A stretch of DNA of 64,000 bases from a virus (IMGVR_UViG_3300015063_000001:779-64778), one strand, 5' to 3'; numbered from the stretch's first letter, positions 21,900 to 64,000 are shown. Notes: generated by a model from the sequence alone, not told the origin. Program-made: numbers and translations.

Positions 21900-23078
21900 A
21901 TGTTTCTGAACTATAAATATCGGCTCATACCAAACAAGCGCCAGCATAGGGCGCTTGCGGATATCTGTGAGTCTCAGCGGCAACTCTACAACGCCGCACT
22001 TGAGGAAAGAATCGACTGCTATCGCAAGACTGGCAAAGGCCGTTCCTACTTCGATCAATGCAAGGCCGTGACAGAGTGTCGTCACGCCTTGCCAGAGATG
22101 GGTGCATTGCCGGCCAATCTCCAGCGGTGGACGCTAAAGCGTTTGGACGACGCTTATGCTGGGTTCTTCCGCCGCTGCAAGACAAACGGCAAAGCTGGAT
22201 TTCCGCGCTTTCGCGGTAAGGGCTGGTGGAGCAGTTTCGGGTTTGCCACGTTCAGTGGCGTCGAGTTTGACGGTAAGCGGCTTCGTTTCAAGGGATTTCC
22301 AGGCGGCTTGCGCGTTCATATCTGCCGTCCGCTTCCACAGGATTGTAGAATAACATCCTGCGTTTTCAACCGCGACCACAAAGGCTGGAACGTCTGTTTC
22401 CAGATCGAGGTCGCGGCGGCAGAGAAAAAGGCGATTGCAAGCGAGGTCGGCATCGACGTCGGGCTTATCGCTTTCGCCTACCAAAGCGACGGCGTTGCAA
22501 TTCCTGCACCGCAGTTTGCGCGGCGCGCTGAGCGTGAAATGCGCCGTAGACAGCGCGCTTTGGCCCGCTGCAAAAATGGCTCCAACTGCCGCAAGAAGGC
22601 GAAGGAGCGCGTCGCCCGTCTGCACCGCAAGATCGTTAATGTTCGCACCACTTGGCTGCATCAGCAGTCGGCGCGCATCGTAAATTCATACGATTTAATC
22701 GCCGTTGAAGATTTGAAAGTCGCCAATATGGTTAGGAATGGCCATTTGGCGCGTTCAATATCCGATGCGTCGTGGTCTACTTTCACAAATATGCTGTCCT
22801 ATAAAGCTGAAAAGGCTGGTGGGACCTTCGTGAAGGTTGACCCAAGGATGACTTCGCAAATCTGTTCTGGCTGCGGAGTGGTTGTGAAAAAGGGCTTGGC
22901 TGATCGGGTGCATTCGTGCCCTGATTGCGGACTAACTCTTGATCGCGATCACAACGCGGCGATAAACATTTTGCACCGGGCTGGGAATCGTCCGGGGGCC
23001 GCTAACGTGATCCAAGTTTGGGATGAGCGTTGGCCCGGAAACATGCCAGAGGCTCCCGCAAGGGGGCGAGTGGTATAA
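21900..23078 (+). mobile_element. tnpB: TnpB RNA-guided endonuclease (IS200/IS605 superfamily), no tnpA nearby
   Basis: N-terminal YKYRLIPN; GFPRFR; RuvC GIDVG, AVEDL and DRDHNAAINI; zinc finger CSGCG...CPDCG. Confidence 0.92.
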
Positions 23079-25144: not shown

Positions 25145-25885
25145 ATGAAAAAGGCGAAATACGAGAGCGGTATTCCTGGTGTGTATTGGGATAAGTCGCA
25201 CAACTCTTGGAGAGTTAATCTAGAGAGCGGCGGCAAGAAAACGTACCTAGGCCGCCGTAAGACTCTCGAAGAGGCGACAAAGTTAAGGTTGGATGCCGAG
25301 GTCGGTATCCTGCCAACGGATGAGGAAAAGAAGTCACGGCTTTTCGACAAGATGGCCCGCATAAGGATGCGAGCGGTTTGGAGAGAGGCGACGAATGGCG
25401 ATCACGGTTGGAAGTCGTTTGATGATTTTGTGATTAGCGTTGGCGATCGACCGAAAGTTGAGCGCCGGTTAGTTGCAAAGGACGAAAGCCGACCCATTGG
25501 GCCAGATAACTTCCAGTGGGTTCGACCGAGATACGACCATCAAACTAAGGAGGGTCGTAGCGAATACCAGAAGGCTCATAGGATGGCGAACCCTATGAGT
25601 TACCGAGACGGAGAATTTAGGAGACGGTTTGGTATAACTCTCGCTGACTACCAAGCCAAGTTTGTAGAGCAAAAGGGTGTGTGTGCAATCTGCAGTAAGC
25701 CAGAGAGTGGCACGAGAAACGGAGTTACTCGCTGGCTTTGTGTAGATCATAACCACGATACGGATGCGGTTCGTGGTTTGCTGTGCACCAACTGTAATGT
25801 CGCCGTCGGTATGATGTTCGAGAATCGGGATATCCTGCGGTCTGCGATTTCGTACTTAGAGAAGTGGGACTGTGTTGAAGCCTAA
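25145..25885 (+). CDS. endonuclease VII-family homing endonuclease with AP2-like N-terminus
   Basis: FGITLADY...QKGVCAICS...VDHNHDTDAVRGLLCTNCN. Confidence 0.9.
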   Translation: MKKAKYESGIPGVYWDKSHNSWRVNLESGGKKTYLGRRKTLEEATKLRLDAEVGILPTDEEKKSRLFDKMARIRMRAVWREATNGDHGWKSFDDFVISVGDRPKVERRLVAKDESRPIGPDNFQWVRPRYDHQTKEGRSEYQKAHRMANPMSYRDGEFRRRFGITLADYQAKFVEQKGVCAICSKPESGTRNGVTRWLCVDHNHDTDAVRGLLCTNCNVAVGMMFENRDILRSAISYLEKWDCVEA

Positions 25886-27489: not shown

Positions 27490-28155
27490 ATGGCCTTCCC
27501 AAAAGTCTTCACGAAGCAGCTAGCCGCCGCTTCCTCCAATTCCATAGCCCTCTCTCAATCGCCAGGCACAGCCAGTCTCACCCTTAACGGGGCTGCTGTT
27601 TCTGGCGGCGTGGCTACGATCGACGCCGCGACTGCCGCCAATTCCGCAGTCGGCCGACGTGTTATCATCACGTCAGGCGGCAACGATTCCGGCATCAATT
27701 GGACGGTTGTTGGGACGGGCCCATCTGGCTCGGCCATTAGCGACACCTTTGCCGGCAGCAACGGCGGTGCCGCGCAATCCAACCTAGACTTTGTGACGGT
27801 TTCGAGCATCACGCCGAGTGCGGCTGTGGCCACAACGGCTATTGCCGGGACCAATGGTGTCGGTTCCTCTCAATGGTGGCCGCTGAACTGGGATGTGACG
27901 TCGGTAATGAACGTCGGGTATGCGGTCGAGGTAGTTTCCGGGGCCGTGAACTTCACCATTCAGCACACCTACGACGACCCTAACAATCTTTTGGGCGGGT
28001 CTCTTTTCCCGCTTGCATTTAATAGCCCTGTTGTCGCCGCCGCGACCGCGAATGCGGATGGCATTTACACCGGTCCTATCGCCGCCATTCGCGTGCTGAT
28101 AAATTCCGGCGCCGGCGAAATCAGGGTTCGTGTTCTGCAATCTGGCATCGGGTGA
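27490..28155 (+). CDS. virion structural protein
   Basis: SD GAGG; Ala/Gly/Ser/Thr-rich beta protein. Confidence 0.75.
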   Translation: MAFPKVFTKQLAAASSNSIALSQSPGTASLTLNGAAVSGGVATIDAATAANSAVGRRVIITSGGNDSGINWTVVGTGPSGSAISDTFAGSNGGAAQSNLDFVTVSSITPSAAVATTAIAGTNGVGSSQWWPLNWDVTSVMNVGYAVEVVSGAVNFTIQHTYDDPNNLLGGSLFPLAFNSPVVAAATANADGIYTGPIAAIRVLINSGAGEIRVRVLQSGIG

Positions 28156-28159
28156 TTGA

Positions 28160-28498
28160 ATGTACTCATACCCGAATGTCTCGCTAGGTGCGGTCGGAAG
28201 CTCAGATGCAATTGTTCCGTACAGCACGCGCGGCGTCCAGATAGGCCAGTTGGTCGCACAGCCGATCACCGGGCTCGGCATGATCTGCAAGGTGTCGGCC
28301 GGGGCCTCTCTGACATACACCGTGCAGATCACCGGCGACGATCCAAACAACATTGTTAATTGGATCGACCACGATTTTCTGCGGAATTTGACGGCGAGTC
28401 AGTACGGACAAGTCATCTATCCGGTTTCTGCGATTAGGCTCAACGTGACGGTCTGGGCCAGCGGGACGGTCAACATGGGAACGGTGCAATGGCCTTAA
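28160..28498 (+). CDS. virion structural protein
   Basis: 112 aa; its C-terminal half resembles that of the previous protein (TYTVQ.T.DDPN...SAIRLNV). Confidence 0.7.
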   Translation: MYSYPNVSLGAVGSSDAIVPYSTRGVQIGQLVAQPITGLGMICKVSAGASLTYTVQITGDDPNNIVNWIDHDFLRNLTASQYGQVIYPVSAIRLNVTVWASGTVNMGTVQWP

Positions 28499-29643
28499 AA
28501 TCAATCGCTCGAATTTTGGTTGTTGCGATGGCGCTCAATTCTGCGGCCTACGGGCAATCGGCGCAGCCGGTTATCCCGCTAGTCGCGAACGCGGCGGTGA
28601 GTGCCACAAACCCAATGCCGGTGACGCCCATATCCGGCGGCACGGCACAAGACGTCAACATCACGAAAATTCTAGGTGCGGCACCGAGTCTGACTAACCC
28701 GCTGTTTGTGTCGCCGGCTACTGGCGCGACGTTCCCGGTCAGCGCGGCATCGCTGCCGCTGCCTGCCTTGGCTGCGACCTCCACGCTTCAAACTAGCGGC
28801 GCACAGAAAACCCAGATCGTTAACGGCTCCGGCAACGTCATTGGGGCCACGTCAAACGCCTTGGACGTGAATATCAAGTCTGGTTTTGGAACGACCATTG
28901 CCGTTACGCAATCCACTACGCCGTGGATCGTGGCTGGCGGCGGCACGGCTGGAACGGCGGCAACTGGCGTCGTGACCGTTCAAGGCATTGCGTCCATGAC
29001 GCCCTTGCTCGCCACGGCGACGTTGAACCAGGGCGGCACGGTTCTTAGCGCCACGAACGGGATTTTCAGCAACGTTCTGCAGGGCAATGCTGTGCTGTCA
29101 GCGACGAACGGGCTTTATTCAAACCTTGTGCAAGGCAACGTCGCTTTGTCGGCAACGAATGGCCTGTACTCAAATCTCTTGCAGGGCAACGCGGTCATAT
29201 CCGCAACCAACGGCCTGTACGGCAATATCCTGCAAGGCAACGCAGTTCTCTCGACGAGCAATCCGATTTTCATTACTGGCACTGGCACGGCTGGAAGCGC
29301 GGCGACGAACCCAATAACGGTGCAGGGCATCACCTCGATGACGCCGCTTTTGGTCACGCCGTCAAATCCTATAGGCATCACGCCGACAGATCGCACAATT
29401 ACATCGGCAACCGGATCGTCGCAAACCGTCGCCGCCTCAAATGCCTCCAGACATAGTTTGATTATCCAGAACACCGGCAACGCAAACTGCGGCATTAATC
29501 CAACCGGAGGCACAGCTTCTATCGGTGGGGCTGGTACTTTGACGCTGGTTCCGAACGGTAGTTATCAGCCTCGCATCCCAACACTAACCGCAATTACGGC
29601 GATTTGCACCGCAGGCCAACCGCTCTATGCAGAGGAAAACTAA
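28489..29643 (+). CDS. fibre-like protein with signal peptide and 17-aa repeats
   Basis: MALKSIARILVVAMALNSAAYG/Q; Thr/Gly/Asn-rich. Confidence 0.75.
   Translation: MALKSIARILVVAMALNSAAYGQSAQPVIPLVANAAVSATNPMPVTPISGGTAQDVNITKILGAAPSLTNPLFVSPATGATFPVSAASLPLPALAATSTLQTSGAQKTQIVNGSGNVIGATSNALDVNIKSGFGTTIAVTQSTTPWIVAGGGTAGTAATGVVTVQGIASMTPLLATATLNQGGTVLSATNGIFSNVLQGNAVLSATNGLYSNLVQGNVALSATNGLYSNLLQGNAVISATNGLYGNILQGNAVLSTSNPIFITGTGTAGSAATNPITVQGITSMTPLLVTPSNPIGITPTDRTITSATGSSQTVAASNASRHSLIIQNTGNANCGINPTGGTASIGGAGTLTLVPNGSYQPRIPTLTAITAICTAGQPLYAEEN
29029..29283 (+). repeat. five tandem 51-bp units (QGNAVLSATNGLYSNLL-like)
   Basis: Units start at 29029, 29080, 29131, 29182 and 29233. Confidence 0.9.
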
Positions 29644-29644
29644 C

Positions 29645-30283
29645 ATGCGTATTGCAGTAATCATTGCAACACTGCTTTGGTCGTCGCTTGCATTTGGGCA
29701 GGGGATTAATAATCCGTGCGGAAATACCGCAACGTCAACTGTTCCTGGCTGCGTCAAGCCTGACGGCACGACGATTACGAATACGGCGGGGGCGATCAGC
29801 GTCACCAATCCGGCAACTACCGTTGGTACGGCTACGGTTGGGCAAATTCCGGGGACGACAACCAATGACGATGCCGGGGTAGGAAAGGTAGGTGAATTTC
29901 TTTCCACCACAGTCACAAGTGGTTCGGCTGTCGCACTTACAAGCGGTGTGCCTATAACAATCGTAAGCAAAGCATTTACCGCAGGGGATTGGGATTTAAC
30001 TTGTGACCTATACTCTATTCCAGCCGCTTCTACCGTCGCGGGCACTTGGTATTCGAGTATTTCTTTGGTAACGAATACACTCGATGTCTCACCAGGAGCG
30101 CTTCAAACATATTTGGTAGGTTCTGCTGGCGCAACCCCCGCAGGGGGATATTTTACTATGCACATAGGCCCTTTTCGTGCGTCACTAAGCGGGACGACTA
30201 CTTATTACTGCGTAACGCAACAGGGTTTTTCAGTAAGCACTAGCTCCGCATACGGCATCATTCGTGGTCGTCGCGTTAGATAA
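29645..30283 (+). CDS. fibre/spike-like protein with signal peptide
   Basis: MRIAVIIATLLWSSLAFG/Q; GTTTNDDAGVGKVGEF and GIIRGRRVR* are typical of phage fibre C-terminal domains. Confidence 0.75.
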   Translation: MRIAVIIATLLWSSLAFGQGINNPCGNTATSTVPGCVKPDGTTITNTAGAISVTNPATTVGTATVGQIPGTTTNDDAGVGKVGEFLSTTVTSGSAVALTSGVPITIVSKAFTAGDWDLTCDLYSIPAASTVAGTWYSSISLVTNTLDVSPGALQTYLVGSAGATPAGGYFTMHIGPFRASLSGTTTYYCVTQQGFSVSTSSAYGIIRGRRVR

Positions 30284-30466
30284 TTTGAAAAATTATGAAT
30301 TATGGAAGTAGCGCGGCAATGGAAGTCGAAAATAAACCAGGCGAGATGAGGACCGGCGGATGTCCGCCACTTTGAATTTGTATGGCAACATCAGGAACGT
30401 AAGGTGATCGGGGTCTCAAGCACATATGGTTTTTTGCCGCCACACCAAGCGCCGCGCGCCGCGCCC

Positions 30467-31270
30467 ATGTGTGAGGCGGTTGTTTCTGTTGTTGTCTACA
30501 TGGCGACCAATCTTACAAATGGCAAAAAATATATAGGCGTCACTAAGACGACCTTAGAAAAGAGGTCTCAGCAACATTTTGCGAAGGCCGCCAACGGTAG
30601 CAAATATAAATTTCATTGCGCTATCAGAAAATACGGTCGCGGCTCTTTTAAGTTCGAGGTCTTACATACGTTGTATGATTATAGAGAAGCGCTCCAATGC
30701 GAGATAGAGACAATTGATTGCATAAAACCAGAATATAATTCTACCAAGGGCGGCGAGGGTGTTGTCGGGATGTTCATATCTGACGAACATCGACGCGCGG
30801 TGTCAGAGGCCAATATAGGAAACCGATATTGGGTTGGCAAAAAACATCGCCCAGAAAGCATTGAAAAAATGCGGCTAGCCCGTACTGGGACTGATGGATA
30901 TTGGAAGGGCAAAAAACGCCCACCCATCTCGGCTGAAACATCAGCCAAATTAAAGGAAAACCATCCTCGGTATTGGCTTGGTAAAAAAAGAGACAGGGCC
31001 ACTGTAGACAAAATGTTAGCAACTAGAGCCGGAACGCCAACGCACGAAAATAGCATAAAAGCCCTTATTGAAAACCATTCCGTTGGGGTAGATGCGTCTG
31101 CAAAGAAACGCAGAAAAGAAATTGTATGCCTAGACGACGGAATGATCTTTTCGTGCGCTAGAGAGGCGGCTCAGCACTATGGATTAAATTGGAGAAGTGT
31201 GCACAAGGCAATTCGTCATCCGCATAAATTGCACGGGCTGTCCTTTAGATACGAATTAGACAATGGCTAA
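30467..31270 (+). CDS. GIY-YIG homing endonuclease with NUMOD3 repeats
   Basis: VYMATNLTNGKKYIGVT...R..QH; KKHRPESIEKMR; start uncertain. Confidence 0.9.
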   Translation: MCEAVVSVVVYMATNLTNGKKYIGVTKTTLEKRSQQHFAKAANGSKYKFHCAIRKYGRGSFKFEVLHTLYDYREALQCEIETIDCIKPEYNSTKGGEGVVGMFISDEHRRAVSEANIGNRYWVGKKHRPESIEKMRLARTGTDGYWKGKKRPPISAETSAKLKENHPRYWLGKKRDRATVDKMLATRAGTPTHENSIKALIENHSVGVDASAKKRRKEIVCLDDGMIFSCAREAAQHYGLNWRSVHKAIRHPHKLHGLSFRYELDNG

Positions 31271-31946
31271 TACTAGCAACACATACAATTACAACCCGAT
31301 CCTCGGCAGTCTGTTTCTGACTGCGTTTTCGCGCATCCAGGTCAAGCGGACTGAACTGTCTCCGCAGCATATCGAGGACGCCAAGAACGAAGCCAACCTT
31401 CTCCAACAGTCGTGGCTCAATGACGGCCTGACACTTTGGACGGTCGATCTGCAGACAGTGCCTCTTGTCGCCGGTACCGCGACCTACAATGTCCCGACCA
31501 ATACCGTCATGGTGCTCGATCTCTATATCAGCATAAACGGCGGCTCCAACCGGCTCATCCTTCCGTTCTCGCGAACGGATTTCGCCTCGCTGGCAAACCC
31601 AACTCAGACTGGTTTCCCGACAAGCTTTTGGTTCGATCGCGTCGTCACTCCGACGCTGACTCTGTGGCCCGTGCCGGACGGCAACGCCACTTACGTCATG
31701 AACTACTACCGCTATCGGATTATGCAGGACGCCGTCGCCGCCAACGGCGGGCAGCCGGAGATCCCGTACCTTTGGGGTGATGCCTACGTCGCCGCCCTGG
31801 CACACCGTCTTTCGCGGAGCTACGCGCCGGCGCTCGAGGCAATCCGTAAAGCCGATGCGACCGAGGCTTATGCGCTGGCATCAAAGCAGGGGACAGAGAA
31901 CGTACCATTATACCTATCGTGCGGCCTTAGCGGTTATTATAGATGA
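31263..31946 (+). CDS. head-tail adaptor protein
   Basis: NEANLL...W.NDG.TLWT; G.P..FWFDR...LWPVPD; conserved podovirus position. Confidence 0.8.
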   Translation: MANTSNTYNYNPILGSLFLTAFSRIQVKRTELSPQHIEDAKNEANLLQQSWLNDGLTLWTVDLQTVPLVAGTATYNVPTNTVMVLDLYISINGGSNRLILPFSRTDFASLANPTQTGFPTSFWFDRVVTPTLTLWPVPDGNATYVMNYYRYRIMQDAVAANGGQPEIPYLWGDAYVAALAHRLSRSYAPALEAIRKADATEAYALASKQGTENVPLYLSCGLSGYYR

Positions 31947-32965
31947 AAACAGAAAAGTCATTCATCATTTACCTAGCGACGAACACCGTTAACGGAAAAC
32001 GGTACGTTGGCGCGACACGCAAAGGAATAGAGGGCCGGAGTCGGCAACATTTTAAGGATGCTCAGAGGAAGGGAAAGACACGTGATTGTCCTCGTTTCTA
32101 TGACGCCATTCGCAAGCATGGCCAAGATGCGTTTGAGTGGACAACATTGGCAACTCTGCCAACGTCAGAGGAAATGTACAAAGAGGAAGAGCGGCTAATC
32201 GCTTTGCTGAAACCAGAATACAATATTGCTTCCGGCGGTCTGGTCTTTATCTCTAAAGAAAAGCAAGCGCAGTTTTCTGCGTCCGGTGCGCAACGGAACA
32301 GTAAGCCTGTTATCTGTTTGAACGACGGATCCGTTTACCCAAGCGCGGCAGCGGCAGCGCTCGCCTATGGCATGGATAGGCACAACCTGGCCGATATCTG
32401 TAATAGAGAAAGTATTGCGAGGAACGGTCTATCGTTTTCTTTCATCATCGGGCCAATGACCGAGGCCGAGCGCGAGGTAATTTTCAGAGAACGGAAAGAA
32501 CGCAAGGCTGCGGCAGAATTAGCTAGAATAAAAAAGACAACCGGAACCATAAGCCGCCCCGTAACCGATCTGAATACTGGTGTGATATATACAAGCGCGA
32601 CAGCCGCCGATAGAGTTCTTAATCTTGTTGTTGGGACAGCGGAGGCTTGTTGCAGAAGGGGAAGAGCGACAAGGCGTGGTGAATGCTTTGCGTTCGGTCA
32701 ATTGTCCGAACCTGAAAGACTCCGCCTCTTGGCACTGGCAATAGAAAATAGGAGAGCCATCGATACTTCGTGGAAACAAAACCTTTCAAAGAGGCGCCGT
32801 CTCAGGCCAGCACAGCTGGTTAGATGTGACACTTATGGTATAACATTTAGCAGCGCTGAGGCCGCAGAAATTGAATATTGTATAGCGGCCAATTCAATCA
32901 GGGAGTCGTGCTCTGGTAGAGACACAATGGTTTTCGGTCTTAAGTTTTCATACGTGGAAGATTGA
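31943..32965 (+). CDS. GIY-YIG homing endonuclease with repeated NUMOD1/IENR1-like modules
   Basis: IYLATNTVNGKRYVGAT...R..QH; repeated PVICLNDG.VYPSA modules. Confidence 0.9.
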   Translation: MKTEKSFIIYLATNTVNGKRYVGATRKGIEGRSRQHFKDAQRKGKTRDCPRFYDAIRKHGQDAFEWTTLATLPTSEEMYKEEERLIALLKPEYNIASGGLVFISKEKQAQFSASGAQRNSKPVICLNDGSVYPSAAAAALAYGMDRHNLADICNRESIARNGLSFSFIIGPMTEAEREVIFRERKERKAAAELARIKKTTGTISRPVTDLNTGVIYTSATAADRVLNLVVGTAEACCRRGRATRRGECFAFGQLSEPERLRLLALAIENRRAIDTSWKQNLSKRRRLRPAQLVRCDTYGITFSSAEAAEIEYCIAANSIRESCSGRDTMVFGLKFSYVED

Positions 32966-32967
32966 GC

Positions 32968-33378
32968 ATGAGACCTCACGGAAAATACGCCAGAGTAAAT
33001 GACCACAATCCGGAAAACTTTGCGCAATGCGATCGGTGCGGATTCTGGCGTTCCGGATCGGATCTGATTTGGCAGATAGACTGGGCAGGGACGAGACTTT
33101 ATAACAAGCGCATATTGGTTTGCTCGGACCGCTGCTTCGACACGCCGCAAGAGCAGCTCCGATCGCTGGTTTTGCCTCCTGACCCCTTGCCTGTCCTAAA
33201 CGCGAGAGAACCTAACTTCGCTTACGAAGAGCAGACGGTTTTGATTGCTCAATTCGGTGGAACTGATAGTCTTGCCTCTCCGAATGCGCAGCCTCCTTGG
33301 GCGGCCGGTCCTCAGTTGATGTTGTGTGATCAAAGCGGAGAAATTCCGCTTGTGCTGCAATACCTGACATCATCGTGA
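32968..33378 (+). CDS. conserved zinc-binding morphogenesis-region protein
   Basis: AQCDRCGF...LVCSDRCFDTPQEQL. Confidence 0.8.
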   Translation: MRPHGKYARVNDHNPENFAQCDRCGFWRSGSDLIWQIDWAGTRLYNKRILVCSDRCFDTPQEQLRSLVLPPDPLPVLNAREPNFAYEEQTVLIAQFGGTDSLASPNAQPPWAAGPQLMLCDQSGEIPLVLQYLTSS

Positions 33379-33385
33379 GATTTGA

Positions 33386-33865
33386 ATGACCGTCCCTGTT
33401 GATGGCAGATTAACTAGTTTGGATCTACTGAACATTGCCTTGGCCGGCGATGAGGTGATGTACATTGTTTCGCCTGGGAATGCTGCGCAAGGCAATAGCT
33501 ATCGGGTAACAACGTCTGTTCTGGCTGCTTTCTTCGCCGCCTTCCCGGCCTTAAACACTACGATAATTACGGCCGGTGCAACGCTGGCGAGTCCGTATCA
33601 GGTCGAAACGACCGATACGCGGATATTGTTCAATAAGACGCTGAGCTCGGACAGTTACGCTGTGTTGCCGCTTTCTGGATCGATGGCGTCTCCTGGGGGG
33701 GTTTTGTTTAAGGACCTCAAGGGCGATGCCGGCACGCATCCGATAACGGTTACTTTTACCGGCGGTCAGTTGTGCGATGGTTTGTCGCAAGTGCAAATCG
33801 CAAGCGCCTATGGTTCCTTTACGATAAATCCGATTCCTGGAGGCAGCGGGTGGTTTCTTTCATGA
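33386..33865 (+). CDS. tail/fibre-associated protein
   Basis: 159 aa; beta-rich C-terminus (KDLKGDAGTHPITV). Confidence 0.75.
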   Translation: MTVPVDGRLTSLDLLNIALAGDEVMYIVSPGNAAQGNSYRVTTSVLAAFFAAFPALNTTIITAGATLASPYQVETTDTRILFNKTLSSDSYAVLPLSGSMASPGGVLFKDLKGDAGTHPITVTFTGGQLCDGLSQVQIASAYGSFTINPIPGGSGWFLS

Positions 33866-36800
33866 CCAAAACTAGGTCAATCATCTTCGCCGCTGTGGCG
33901 GCGTTTATGTTCCCCGTCGTCGCGCAAGCTGACTGCAGCGGGCAGTATGCTGCCGGCCAGGTCTGCGGCAATTCCGGCGCGGCATTAGGTCTCCCGACCG
34001 CCCAGGGCCTAAGCCCGATCCTCGATCGTAACTTTGGCGCCCCTTCCGCGCAAGGAACGATGCTCAATCGTGGCGCGTCGTTGTGGTCTGCGACACCAAC
34101 TCCGGTTTTGGGCATCGCCGGCGCGACTGACGGAACGCTTGGGCTGGCGGCGATCGGCGGCGGCGTAACGACAATTAAAGGATCCGCGGCGAGCAACTAC
34201 ACGTTCAAACTGCCTTCGTCCGGAGGGACGAGTGGATATTTTTTGACAACGGATGGTGCTGGAAATACGTCTTGGGTTAGCGCGAGCGGCAGCGTTAGCA
34301 GTGTCGGGCTTGCTGCGCCCGGTGAGTTCACCGTTTCAGGATCGCCGGTTACTAATTCAGGAACACTAACCCTCACCAAAGCCACGCAAGTAAAAAACCT
34401 TGTATGGGCCGGTCCAACTACCGGCTCTGACGCGCAGCCGACATTCCGCGCGCTTGTCGGCGCCGATCTTCCTAATCCGTCAGCGTCTACGCTTGGCGGC
34501 ATCAGGTCTCTAGTTGCCGTCTCGCATCAGTGGATCAACGCGATATCGACATTGGGCGTGCCGTCGGCGACCCAGCCGGGGTTCAGTGATCTTTCGGGAA
34601 CGGTGGCTATTAGCCAGATCCAGCCCATCTCAAACAATACCGTTATTGGGAACAACACTGGCGCTACGGCGCCGCCGATCTTGCTCTCACCGTCGAACGT
34701 GCTCGACATTATCGGCGCTGTCCAGGGCGACGTGCTTTATCGGAACGCCTCTGCGTGGGTGGCGTTGGCCCCCGGCACAAACGGGCAAGTTCTGACGTCT
34801 AGTGGCGCCGCCGCTAATCCGACATGGACTACGGTTAGCGGCACCGGCACGGTTACCAATATCGCTACCGGAACAGGTCTTACTGGCGGCCCCATTACGG
34901 CAACGGGGACTATTTCCTTCGCCTCGATCGCGGATGGGAATGTTCTCGCCAACGTCAGCGGCGGAAGCGCTGCGCCAATAGCTAATACGCCAAGCGCCGT
35001 GCTCGACGTCATCGGAGCGGTACAAGGCGATGTTCTATATCGCGGCGTTTCGGCATGGCTTGCTCTTGCTCCAGGCGCAAGCGGACAGGTTCTCGCTACG
35101 CAAGGCGCTGGTGCTACCCCGCATTGGGTAACTCAAACAGCTTCGCAATGGACCACGACCGGATCGGATATTTATTACAACACCGGAAAGGTCGGCATTG
35201 GGAATACGGCTCCTACTGCATCGCTTACTGTTGGTCCCGTATTTGCGAACACGGCAACTTCCACAACGTTCACCACGAATGCCGGCGCGCTCGGTACGAC
35301 CGCGACGAATACGCTTCGCTTGGGAAGCCTAGGCTTCACCTCGACAAACGAAGACCATCTTGGGGTTATGGCCTATCGCACTGCGAACGGGTCAAGCCAT
35401 TTCACGACCGCGATCGGTCTTGGCGTCGACGTCGATAGCACGCCGTTTACTGTGGCGAATGGTCTTTGGTTCTACGATCAATCCGGATACGTCGGTCTAG
35501 GCGTAGCCATCCCGACCGCTCGGCTTTCTATCAACGATCCAACGTCGACCTACAATGGCGGCTTGGGAAATATTCTGATTACCAATTCGGCGGATACCAC
35601 GAAGCAACTCGGTATTGGCTACGACACGGCCCTAGGTGCGAACGGCTCTGGCTGGGTTCAGGCGACTAAGACTGGGGCTGCCTTTACGCCGTTTTTGCTT
35701 AACCCGAATGGCGGCAACGTCGGCGTCGGCACGACGGCCCCACTTGCGCGGTTTAGTGTCTACGATGCGACTGCGGCTTATAATGGTGGCGTCGGCAATA
35801 TTCTCATTACTAATTCTGCGGACAATAACAAGCAACTTGAAATTGGATACGACACTGCCCTTGGCGCCAACGGTTCCGGGTGGATACAAGCCATTAAGCT
35901 TGGAACGGCGTATACGCCATTGTTGCTCAATCCTACCGCAGGCAACGTAGGCATCGGCACTATTGCGCCGACTGAACAACTACACACGACCGGCGGCGTT
36001 CGTTTTGCGAGCTTCGGCCGTGGCAATGCCATTTTTAGCGATACTGGGAAAATTTTTTCGTCGCCCAATACTTACAATGTCATTGCATATGGGGCAAACA
36101 TCACTACGCCAGGATTCAATAATTATACCGCAATTCAAGGCGCTCTGACTGACGCGGCCAATGGTGGCACGGTTTATCTGCCATGCGGCAAATATCAAAT
36201 TGACGCCGAGCTAACTCTTACAATCGCAACTCATCGCTCCGTCACAATCCAGGGCGACGGGCAGGATTGCACAATTTTGTATTTTAGCGGCACAGACGGC
36301 ATATTCATAACGGCTGTAGATATTACTAGTTCATTTCATCTCAAGGGCATGTCTATTACTACAGGCAACATCAATGCTAATACTGGCGTCTATGCCACGC
36401 ATACTACTGGATGCAATCAATACCCCGGAACCAATCCTGAAAGCACTGTCGAAAACGTAACCTTCCGTGGAGATGATGGTTATCATCAGACGGAATATTG
36501 GAATATTGGATTAGAGGTTGTTGACATATCTAACGTCAACATAAACGGCTTTGCATTCCATGGTCCATCGGCGGGTACCTATGGCGGGACCGGACTTATC
36601 TTAACCGGAAGAAAGGCTGCTGGTAGTGGTAACGCTTGTAGTCCTGGTGCTGATATCGGCGCTGTCTACAGTATCGATAGTAGCATTATTTCGTCAGCCG
36701 CGAACGGGCTTGTTTATGGTGACGAAATCCAAGGCGTGACTATTTCAAATACAAACTTTCAATTCCTGAATAATCCAGGCGGCGGCATATATCATCATGG

Positions 36801-37263
36801 CGATGGCATCGTCGCCACCGGCACGAACATGGACCAGCTTGCCGTTGTTAACACCCAATTCGGGTCGCTCGATCACGGTATCTTGGCCAACAATACAAGC
36901 AACCCGATAAACTCTCTTTCTGTTTCTAACAGCCTATTTATTCTTTACGATGGGGCATATGGGCTCACCTTAAACAGTAGCCAGTTCACCGTTGTCGGAA
37001 ATGTGTTTACTAGCGGCTCCGGTGGCACAACGCTTTGGGGGATCGACGTTCTGAAATCTACTCAAGGCGTTATTACCGGGAACTCGTTCAACAGTTTGGC
37101 GATTGGCGTCAATCTTCGCTCGGGCGTCCCTGCCGCTTATGGGATAAGCGTGAAGAATAATACATGGTACAACAACACAATCGACGTACAGGATTGGGTT
37201 ACGGCGTACCATGTAAATAACGCTGGCACTGTCGCGAACAGCATCGGGACGGCATCGCCGTAA
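33862..37263 (+). CDS. tail fibre/tailspike with signal peptide, duplicated modules and C-terminal pectate-lyase-like depolymerase domain
   Basis: ATG 33862 is coupled to the upstream stop; repeated GDVLYR..W.ALAPG..GQVL and VGIGT.AP modules; YNVIAYGA...TAIQGAL...GGTVYLPCGKY. Confidence 0.85.
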   Translation: MTKTRSIIFAAVAAFMFPVVAQADCSGQYAAGQVCGNSGAALGLPTAQGLSPILDRNFGAPSAQGTMLNRGASLWSATPTPVLGIAGATDGTLGLAAIGGGVTTIKGSAASNYTFKLPSSGGTSGYFLTTDGAGNTSWVSASGSVSSVGLAAPGEFTVSGSPVTNSGTLTLTKATQVKNLVWAGPTTGSDAQPTFRALVGADLPNPSASTLGGIRSLVAVSHQWINAISTLGVPSATQPGFSDLSGTVAISQIQPISNNTVIGNNTGATAPPILLSPSNVLDIIGAVQGDVLYRNASAWVALAPGTNGQVLTSSGAAANPTWTTVSGTGTVTNIATGTGLTGGPITATGTISFASIADGNVLANVSGGSAAPIANTPSAVLDVIGAVQGDVLYRGVSAWLALAPGASGQVLATQGAGATPHWVTQTASQWTTTGSDIYYNTGKVGIGNTAPTASLTVGPVFANTATSTTFTTNAGALGTTATNTLRLGSLGFTSTNEDHLGVMAYRTANGSSHFTTAIGLGVDVDSTPFTVANGLWFYDQSGYVGLGVAIPTARLSINDPTSTYNGGLGNILITNSADTTKQLGIGYDTALGANGSGWVQATKTGAAFTPFLLNPNGGNVGVGTTAPLARFSVYDATAAYNGGVGNILITNSADNNKQLEIGYDTALGANGSGWIQAIKLGTAYTPLLLNPTAGNVGIGTIAPTEQLHTTGGVRFASFGRGNAIFSDTGKIFSSPNTYNVIAYGANITTPGFNNYTAIQGALTDAANGGTVYLPCGKYQIDAELTLTIATHRSVTIQGDGQDCTILYFSGTDGIFITAVDITSSFHLKGMSITTGNINANTGVYATHTTGCNQYPGTNPESTVENVTFRGDDGYHQTEYWNIGLEVVDISNVNINGFAFHGPSAGTYGGTGLILTGRKAAGSGNACSPGADIGAVYSIDSSIISSAANGLVYGDEIQGVTISNTNFQFLNNPGGGIYHHGDGIVATGTNMDQLAVVNTQFGSLDHGILANNTSNPINSLSVSNSLFILYDGAYGLTLNSSQFTVVGNVFTSGSGGTTLWGIDVLKSTQGVITGNSFNSLAIGVNLRSGVPAAYGISVKNNTWYNNTIDVQDWVTAYHVNNAGTVANSIGTASP
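35518..35973 (+). repeat. tandem 228-bp (76-aa) in-frame duplication in the tailspike
   Basis: YNGG.GNILITNSAD..KQL.IGYDTALGANGSGW.QA.K.G.A.TP.LLNP..GNVG occurs twice, 228 nt apart. Confidence 0.9.
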
Positions 37264-40985: not shown

Positions 40986-41456
40986 ATGGCACCGCCTAAA
41001 GATACGCGATCGATCAATGAAAGATTCGATTTATCATTCATTCCAGAGCCAAACTCTGGATGTTGGATATGGATGCGCGGAATTAGTAGCACTGGGTATG
41101 GCGCTTTTTGCATAGATGGGAAAACATATGGCGCTCATCGTATTTCTTATGAGCTTTATAAGGGCGCAATACCAATCAGGAAACAACTAGACCATCTTTG
41201 CAGAGTTCGATCCTGCGTTAATCCAGATCATTTAGAGATTGTCACACGTAAAGAAAATCTACGAAGAGGCGAGTCGTTTAGTGGGCTAAATTATAAGAAA
41301 ACCCACTGCATCCATGGGCACAAATTTTCTCGCGAAAACACTATATTTTATACAAAAAAGAATGGGGGCATATCTAGGCTATGTAGAAAATGCCGAGCAT
41401 GGCAATATTTAAACGTGGAAAAATTGGTCAGAGCCAATAAGAGGCGGGCACAATGA
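40986..41456 (+). CDS. HNH homing endonuclease with C-terminal zinc finger
   Basis: PEPNSGCWIW...AHRISYE...DHLCRVRSCVNPDHL; THCIHGH...CRKC. Confidence 0.92.
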   Translation: MAPPKDTRSINERFDLSFIPEPNSGCWIWMRGISSTGYGAFCIDGKTYGAHRISYELYKGAIPIRKQLDHLCRVRSCVNPDHLEIVTRKENLRRGESFSGLNYKKTHCIHGHKFSRENTIFYTKKNGGISRLCRKCRAWQYLNVEKLVRANKRRAQ

Positions 41457-63615: not shown

Positions 63616-64000
63616 GTGGCGATTTGGAAACCGATAGTCGGCCGATTTGTTGACCTCGCCGGATTTCAGGCGCACGTCGACGCGCTCAAATTCGACGGAT
63701 GGACGCCGGCCTTTGTCGTCGTCCACAACACCAGCGCGCCAACGCTGGCGAACTACGCAGAGTGGCGAGCGCATCCCGACAAGCACGGCAACTGGACGCC
63801 GGAGCAATGGGGCCGCAATCTCGCGAGCTATTATCAGGGGCAGGGCTGGAGCGCGGGGCCGCATGCGTTTGTCTGCCCGGACGGCATCCTGCTATTCACC
63901 CCATTTACGACGCCCGGCGTTCATTCGCCGTCCTGGAACCCCAGGACGTGGGGAGTCGAGACCGTCGGCGAGTTTGAGAGCGAGCAGTTTGATAACGGTG
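63616..64000 (+). CDS. endolysin, N-acetylmuramoyl-L-alanine amidase (partial, runs off the window)
   Basis: GTG start; VVVHNT, GWSAGPHAFV, GVHSPSWN, WGVETVGEF. Confidence 0.8.
   Translation, partial: MAIWKPIVGRFVDLAGFQAHVDALKFDGWTPAFVVVHNTSAPTLANYAEWRAHPDKHGNWTPEQWGRNLASYYQGQGWSAGPHAFVCPDGILLFTPFTTPGVHSPSWNPRTWGVETVGEFESEQFDNG

Follow-up and report, generated by a model that had tools for sequence, protein, structure and literature searches.

The window analysed in this study, a stretch of 64,000 nucleotides (nt), covers bases 779-64778 of a single 81,621-bp phage contig (IMGVR_UViG_3300015063_000001); the source is an uncultured, short-tailed soil phage with a genome of about 82 kb. Three genes of the virion module, all on the plus strand, code for proteins with N-termini of the signal peptide type: A (384 amino acids (aa), 28489..29643), B (212 aa, 29645..30283) and C (1,133 aa, 33862..37263). 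The start of C overlaps the stop of a gene for a leaderless protein of 159 aa (33386..33865, plus strand; P0327), a putative fibre socket with an N-terminal fibre-anchor motif and an XD1-type beta-sandwich (residues 55-159), called the stub in the following. An earlier note on this DNA had described A, B and C as fibre- or spike-like proteins and had offered several fates: export with attachment at or after lysis, action as secreted depolymerases or host-surface adhesins, or leaders repurposed as anchors. The leaders, their family conservation, the cysteine signature, the synteny of the split fibre, the fold of the stub and the pairing of stub genes with leader-bearing genes were computed. Judged from the sequences, a genuine export of A, B and C is highly probable. 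The division into socket and fibre, the equivalence of their slot with that of one-piece fibres and the covariation of cysteines were added in the present analysis.

Leader peptides of A, B and C

The three N-termini were recovered at positions 28489, 29645 and 33862 as the earlier note had described them: a basic n-region first, then a hydrophobic core, then a cleavage site of the small-x-small type. The core is uncharged in each. The putative signal peptides lie on the plus strand. For A it comprises 22 residues (28489..28554) with two basic residues, a hydrophobic core of 8-9 residues and the junction AYG/Q; for B 18 residues (29645..29698) with one basic residue, a core of 10-11 residues and AFG/Q; and for C 23 residues (33862..33930) with lysine and arginine in the n-region, a hydrophobic core of 15 residues and AQA/D. 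With n-region charge, an h-region of 7-15 residues, a polar c-region, small residues at -3 and -1 and no proline at +1, all three conform to the layout predicted for Sec export and cleavage by signal peptidase I. An AlphaFold2 (AF2) model of A placed a helix at residues 3-15 of the leader. A lipoprotein reading (signal peptidase II) was rejected, the lipobox [LVI][ASTVI][GAS]C being absent: A and B have no cysteine at +1, and C has a cysteine at +2, following aspartate. Export by the twin-arginine translocation (Tat) system was rejected as well, the motif S/T-R-R-x-F-L-K being absent from all three proteins.

Mis-called start codons were ruled out because homologues start directly with the leader and the start-codon contexts fit. 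The start of A is the first start codon of its frame and lies in a 10-nt overlap with the upstream gene. For B, the ATG at 29645 is preceded by GAGGA at a distance of 9 nt; the alternative ATG at 29627 only extends the basic n-region. The ATG of C at 33862 overlaps the stop codon of the upstream gene (ATGA), and an alternative GTG at 33850, four codons upstream with GGAGG 6 nt before it, retains the leader. Leaders were called with a heuristic of our own, which is not a trained predictor, applied to the open reading frames (ORFs) of the genome and to the homologues. It was positive for 9 of the 102 ORFs of the entire 81.6-kb genome, A and B among them. The longest ORF of C, starting with GTG at 33772, was not flagged; C passes only from the start at 33862. 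Among the other positives were four ORFs in the lysis cassette and two apparent false calls.

Homologue searches yielded hundreds of metagenomic relatives for A, B and C; Bradyrhizobium records were among the homologues. The heuristic detected a leader in 86 of 119 C homologues (72 %), 96 of 119 A homologues (81 %) and 30 of 83 B homologues (36 %). Within the N-terminal region of the C family no stretch is less conserved than the leader: when 30 leader-bearing relatives were aligned, the mean pairwise identity was 0.33 in the leader, 0.58 in residues 24-77 and 0.67 in the shaft. Alanine occupies position -1 in 82 of 86 leaders of the C family, 84 of 96 of the A family and 24 of 30 of the B family, and a small-x-small/Gln junction was present in 83/86, 67/96 and 16/30, respectively, at a glutamine background of 3.7 %. 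The exact conservation of the residue at +1 would be understandable if it became the new N-terminus. Pyroglutamate is formed from N-terminal glutamine, as has been described in exported proteins of Bacteroidota (PMC10653852).

Large proteins with Tat-type leaders were observed in the same late slots of relatives (L006, 4395-7310, S-R-R-S-F-V..; L031, 13151-14431, S-R-R-K-F-I..); from these motifs, folded proteins seem also to be exported from the late modules of relatives via Tat. Two unrelated phage contigs (L021, 9374-19267; L026, 9719-12048) contained runs of two to four leader-bearing fibre-like proteins beside lysis genes, and one of them carries a myovirus-type baseplate gene set.

Cysteine content

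Mature leader-bearing proteins are about three-fold richer in cysteine than their unflagged relatives, with 1.24 versus 0.46 cysteines per 100 aa in the C family, 1.40 versus 0.53 in the A family and 1.30 versus 0.45 in the B family (Mann-Whitney p 2e-11, 3e-7 and 5e-6, respectively). Seventeen clearly one-piece fibres of the C family had 0.16 cysteines per 100 aa. The number of cysteines in the mature protein is even in about 90 % of the leader-bearing members: 77/86 for C, 88/96 for A and 27/30 for B (binomial p 1e-14, 7e-18 and 5e-5). Two columns of the C-family shaft covary perfectly in the leader-bearing class, where the pair is Cys/Cys in 49 repeats, Leu/Gly in 24 and mixed in none; in the leaderless one-piece fibres the same columns held Leu/Gly in 12 repeats and Cys/Cys in none. 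In this phage A has two cysteines, B four and C six; no cysteine occurs in the capsid protein or in the ejection protein of 1,240 aa. Paired cysteines are expected of proteins folding in an oxidising compartment, and we regard this signature as the strongest indirect evidence for the predicted export.

Protein C and the upstream stub

Protein C has the usual polarity of tail fibres, a conserved N-terminal part of 420 residues followed by a hypervariable distal part. Behind the leader lies a mature N-terminal module (residues 24-77, 33931..34092, plus strand) confined to the leader-bearing class and marked by an invariant loop Cys25...Cys35; it is the candidate module for docking on the stub. 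The conserved repeat shaft (residues 78-422, 34093..35127, plus strand) is common to leaderless one-piece fibres, which align to C only from residue 78 or later. The distal part (residues 423-1133, 35128..37263, plus strand) has an identity of 0.21 among homologues and holds the cysteines 775, 803, 851 and 926. Residues 735-833 (nt 36064-36360) bear a weak resemblance to a polysaccharide lyase (PDB sequence match 9ozd, E 0.0055), and PF12708 is present in some C homologues only. Neither the whole protein nor its parts had a Pfam or PHROG match at E values up to 1, and among cultured phages tblastn found only matches to 50-residue repeats; no cultured phage emerged as a model for this family. 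Bins of Bdellovibrionales and Oligoflexia contained weak matches to the C-family shaft.

The gene order around C is common to eight related viral contigs: an adaptor gene, an optional homing endonuclease gene, a gene for a cysteine-pair protein, a gene for a protein of about 155 aa, the leader-bearing fibre gene and three conserved structural genes. Two further members of the group, L012 and L016, encode one leaderless fibre in place of the 155-aa protein and the leader-bearing fibre. The N-terminal domains of the 155-aa proteins of L007 and L008 match the N-termini of one-piece fibres (E 3e-13 and 5e-9), and the stub in the window is homologous to these two proteins over its full length. In L012 (IMGVR_UViG_3300026911_000003), the one-piece fibre is accompanied by no A- or B-type gene between the homologue of the gene at 27490 and the adaptor gene; this phage is a natural control without exported proteins.

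The AF2 model of the stub had a predicted local distance difference test score (pLDDT) of 83. Its residues 55-159 superimposed on residues 79-175 of CBA120 TSP4 (VIA Z 12.2, root-mean-square deviation 2.4 A over 95 residues), and the model also matched a chain of the T4 baseplate entry 5iv5 (Z 10.1) and T4 gp9 (Z 9.5). The 5iv5 chain is gp10 according to a table in the TSP4 paper (PMC8825819). In TSP4, XD1 follows the baseplate anchor and is regarded by the authors as a spacer of unclear role, and the partner spikes are bound by XD2/XD3, not by XD1 (PMC8825819). A description of the stub fold as a T4 gp10-like docking domain was dropped, the TSP4 paper placing the match at XD1. As modelled, the stub ends with XD1 and has only the anchor before it; in this it resembles the fibre socket gp9 and the N-terminal 180 residues of TSP4. 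It had no Pfam match, a baseplate PHROG at E 0.06 as the sole PHROG match and no cultured-phage relative by tblastn.

A profile of the stub family recovered 13,201 representative clusters. Family members of adapter size have no genuine leader and few cysteines. In the fetched loci a leader-bearing gene lay directly 3' of each of the 13 non-redundant stub members (p 3e-10 against the local background). The codons of the two genes often overlap, and the 13 comprise distant members in which the following protein has no relation to C. The XD1-type domain was also observed in tandem in two giant metagenomic proteins, with 24 copies in P0331 (3,238 aa) and 40 copies in P0384 (7,147 aa); such repetition is unexpected for a domain of fibre sockets.

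Proteins A and B

Protein B consists of the leader, a cysteine loop (C25-C36), a short fibre segment and a tail-fibre tip domain. The tip (residues 66-212, nt 29840-30280) matched positions 383-538 of the 538 positions of phrog_11393, 'tail fiber protein' (E 2e-14), and was found by tblastn at the 3' ends of tail-fibre genes in at least six cultured phage species, including Burkholderia phage BcepC6B (gp19) and Pectobacterium phage PPWS1. Within the B family this tip is joined to the leaderless N-terminus of a classical fibre in some members and comes immediately after a leader in others.

Protein A is built of the leader, a variable N-terminal part, beta-strand repeats (residues 175-262, approximately) and a C-terminal jelly-roll (residues 295-384, nt 29371-29640) that holds its only two cysteines (334 and 373). 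This 90-residue end is 70-90 % identical over about 80 relatives. Protein A had no Pfam match, a single PHROG match of unknown function and no cultured-phage relative by tblastn. The AF2 model was poor (pLDDT 61), and the jelly-roll gave only weak, mixed matches to Ena pilins, PirA and PM2 P1, from which no conclusion is drawn. XepA came up as a lead (score 0.75, and PF27453 in one homologue of A), but protein A itself gave no support for it. The description as fibre- or spike-like in the earlier note thus holds for B, by the homology of its tip to fibre tips of cultured phages, and for C, by its fibre shaft and variable end; A can only be called a beta-repeat protein with a conserved jelly-roll end. 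A small leader-bearing gene behind an A-type gene was also found in several phage contigs that are otherwise unrelated, therefore the pair appears to travel as a module.

Genomic surroundings and lysis cassette

Further genes of the contig code for a capsid-like protein (24179), an SU10-type tail adaptor (31263..31946, plus strand; Pfam PF24175 SU10_adaptor, E 2e-12), structural proteins (37278 and 38949) and the 1,240-aa ejection protein (44617). In this phage family the A-type genes are immediately preceded by a conserved gene for a leaderless protein of 221 aa (27490..28155, plus strand), with synteny in L004, L005, L006 and L013; it had no Pfam or PHROG match, and an Atlas search was uninformative. 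The gene between it and A (28160-28498) codes for a 112-aa protein, a weak paralogue of the C-terminal half of the 221-aa protein (31 % over 62 residues, BLASTP E 4e-5). A protein of 138 aa with two CxxC-type cysteine pairs (32962..33378, plus strand) is always encoded just upstream of the fibre slot. It is kept in every relative, with one-piece and with split fibres alike, and matched no known family; it is a possible assembly factor for the fibre.

The virion module is broken up by four genes of the homing endonuclease type, two GIY-YIG genes on either side of the adaptor gene (30404-31270 and 31943-32965), one HNH/EndoVII gene (25145-25885) and one HNH gene (40986-41456). In relatives some of the same slots are filled and other slots are empty. 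Homing endonuclease genes are numerous in the phage genome, which also has a giant gene of 5,034 codons. It also contains two transposase genes, at 21900-23078 (phrog_506, before the capsid operon) and, in window-scale coordinates, at 67568-68554; the latter codes for a DDE transposase of the IS1595 family and lies inside or beside the lysis region.

The lysis cassette is placed behind the giant gene and runs past the end of the window. It is headed by a leaderless amidase endolysin (PF01510 and PF01471) with its start in the window (63616..64000, plus strand), and comprises a leader-bearing protein, a lipobox protein and small membrane proteins. Hydrophobic N-termini were found in this region at 64495, 65202, 65486, 66388 and 66992, and the protein at 65202 is the single lipobox protein of the genome. 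A cassette of this make-up suggests that the host has two membranes and that lysis follows the classical holin-endolysin-spanin scheme. Proteins with canonical leaders beyond the virion module are encoded at 64495-65181, directly 3' of the endolysin gene, at 71985-72788 and, on the minus strand, at 77891-77619 (window-scale coordinates); none of the three had a family match. A scan of genome contigs gave no reliable host: metagenome bins of many phyla were returned, along with two named isolates with weak partial matches.

Discussion

In textbook assembly of tailed phages every part of the virion is put together in the cytoplasm; complete T4 particles, for their part, accept separately made long fibres in vitro. 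In the explanation that we prefer, the N-termini of A, B and C would be leaders cleavable by signal peptidase I after Sec export. The proteins would be made late, together with the virion proteins, moved to the periplasm of a two-membrane host, cut after the small-x-small motif and folded with disulfide bonds. The new N-terminus, glutamine in most relatives, could cyclise. The tail fibre would be split: protein C would be its distal half, which determines specificity, and the leaderless 159-aa stub its proximal half, mounted on the particle in the cytoplasm. As stub and C carry opposite compartment signals, the two halves could meet only once holin and leaderless endolysin merge cytoplasm and periplasm at lysis. 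C would then dock through its mature N-terminal module with the cysteine loop. A and B may be a mobile pair of exported fibre-like modules that dock likewise or have the envelope as their target. The steps that we infer are translocation, cleavage, oxidation, docking and the timing of docking.

The chain as a whole, from Sec export through the split fibre to docking on the virion at lysis, has in our estimate an even chance of being correct, and for the docking of C to the virion, taken by itself, the odds appear equally balanced. Somewhat more tentative is the general proposal of a two-compartment assembly, in which head, tail and a gp9-like socket would be built in the cytoplasm and the distal fibres that carry specificity would pass through Sec, be trimmed, acquire disulfide bonds in the periplasm and be attached at lysis, a route that large groups of uncultured soil and water phages may use to obtain oxidised, environment-proof fibres. 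Among the fates listed in the earlier note, real export received strong support from the comparisons. The leader as a conserved feature of the families, the small residues at -3 and -1, the common glutamine at +1, the even cysteine numbers, the covarying pair and the Tat variants speak for it, and the same evidence argues against leaders repurposed as anchors. Attachment at or after lysis is favoured for C by the obligatory pairing with the anchor-XD1 stub and by the one-piece fibre that takes the same slot in sister phages.

Several observations weigh against this explanation. The heuristic flags 16-18 % of the ORFs across the fetched loci, and the residue at +1 of C itself is aspartate, not glutamine. 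The domain modelled in the stub is XD1 and not the partner-binding XD2/XD3. The sister phage L012 has no leader-bearing protein at all, therefore the set is not essential to the particle plan. No partner for A or B was found outside this phage family. The presence of A, B and C in the virion is a prediction, and docking after lysis must compete with dilution.

The main competitor shares the export and dispenses with the virion. A, B and C could be free periplasmic or released proteins that bind receptors or cut polysaccharides: by stripping or masking the receptors of the infected cell they would let progeny escape the debris and shut out later phages, or their task would be to loosen envelope or capsule during release. 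In that case the stub would be the remnant of a fibre or have another partner. Leaders and cysteine signature are explained equally well by such proteins, and the topological problem of joining parts from two compartments is avoided. The weak polysaccharide-lyase-like stretch in C and PF12708 in some relatives suit an enzyme; B has little beyond a receptor-binding tip behind its leader; the A-then-B pair moves among unrelated phage types without a fixed leaderless neighbour; and the particle of L012 does without these proteins. Left unexplained are the pairing of the anchor-XD1 stub with a leader-bearing gene in 13 of 13 cases, often with overlapping stop and start codons, the replacement of a one-piece fibre by stub and C in the same slot, and the fibre-like conservation of the first 420 residues of C, with only the far end variable. 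Moreover, leader-bearing proteins are on record in the virions of Cellulophaga phage phi18:3. We consider free exported proteins unlikely, though a serious candidate.

Many phages make both a virion-bound and a free depolymerase, and a partial export of C would follow this common pattern: uncut C would dock on the stub inside the cell, and the exported pool would serve as free enzyme or decoy. The pairing with the stub would thereby be reconciled with classical cytoplasmic assembly. C has no internal start codon that would yield a leaderless form, however, and the even cysteine numbers and the covarying pair imply an oxidised functional form. A buried, uncut leader would also cover the conserved mature N-terminus that resembles a docking module, and we hold such a dual fate to be improbable. 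In KP34-like phages short conserved N-terminal peptides, some of them hydrophobic (MALxxLV), attach secondary receptor-binding proteins (PMC6872550). The hydrophobic N-termini of A, B and C could accordingly be read as cytoplasmic docking or trimerisation helices, given their likeness to these attachment peptides of second tailspikes in some Klebsiella podophages (PMC6872550) and the position of C beside a candidate socket. Docking peptides are conserved within a group, whereas conservation within the N-terminus is lowest in the leader (0.33 identity). The full n/h/c layout with alanine at -1 in 82 of 86 sequences and the substitution by Tat-type leaders in some relatives also disagree with a docking helix, and a cytoplasmic fate leaves the cysteine parity and the contrast with leaderless relatives unexplained. 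A purely cytoplasmic role of these segments is unlikely, and we assign it very little probability.

If export with docking at lysis is confirmed, the host range of such phages would be tied to the Sec, signal-peptidase and Dsb machinery of the host. Disulfides, and perhaps further modifications made in the periplasm, would be open to the fibres and would matter for stability in soil; anyone producing such receptor-binding proteins recombinantly, or engineering them, would have to express them in the periplasm. These genes would be misfiled by annotation pipelines in which a signal peptide counts against a virion role. The leaderless socket and the leader-bearing fibre provide a concrete two-protein system for testing the idea. 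If the proteins are instead free exported enzymes or decoys, they would represent a widespread, undescribed class of late phage products acting on the envelope of the infected cell.

Comparison with known systems

A literature search found no paper on leader-bearing tail fibres of tailed phages. In Porphyromonas phages signal peptides were reported on capsid, spanin and unknown genes, not on tail fibres (PMC10367356). Sec cleavage exposing glutamine, the Q-rule, has been described as exclusive to Bacteroidota (PMC10653852), and phage Sec leaders that expose glutamine have been read as an adaptation to the host export system (PMC10367356, PMC10653852). Like these cases, A, B and most relatives of all three proteins have glutamine at +1. 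Unlike them, the relatives include Bradyrhizobium records.

Cellulophaga phage phi18:3 (NC_021794) is a cultured precedent, not a relative. Its gp085, gp086 and gp087 are three adjacent late podovirus proteins with canonical leaders, two of them ending in A/Q, and in the GenBank record they are entered, on the basis of tandem mass spectrometry, as virion or tail proteins. They differ from A, B and C in the lack of sequence similarity, in the Bacteroidota host and in their few cysteines; a literature search found no paper discussing their leaders. The nearest cellular analogue is the family of mosaic adhesive trimer (MAT) fibres of Bdellovibrio bacteriovorus (PMC10769870). Their layout is alike: a signal peptide is followed by a conserved beta-rich N-domain, a long, trimeric fibre of phage type and, at the C-terminus, a tip that can be swapped. 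As cellular proteins they are displayed on the surface of the predator itself, whereas the genes described here belong to a phage tail module and are paired with a particle-type anchor stub; the likeness is one of layout.

Close parallels to the proposed socket and fibre are adapter or branched receptor-binding protein systems: the adapter gp37 with spikes in K1-5 as opposed to the single anchored spike of K1F, gp66/gp63.1 of G7C, TSP4 with TSP1-3 of CBA120 and the long-fibre socket gp9 of T4 (PMC6872550, PMC8825819). In these systems a short particle-anchored protein is combined with a separately encoded, anchorless distal fibre that has a conserved N-terminal module, and relatives encode the specificity part either as one anchored protein or as adapter plus separate protein (PMC6872550). 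The gene sequences of the phage studied here suggest the same arrangement, an anchor without receptor-binding part in the stub and, encoded by the adjacent gene, a partner without anchor but with a conserved N-terminal module in C. The stub shares the XD1 fold with TSP4, gp10 and gp9. It consists only of anchor and XD1, without the spike-binding jelly-rolls XD2/XD3, and beyond the fold no sequence homology links it to the known adapters. A further difference lies in the compartment: both partners of the known adapter systems are leaderless and assembled in the cytoplasm, whereas the distal partner of this phage has a Sec leader and the marks of disulfide bonds.

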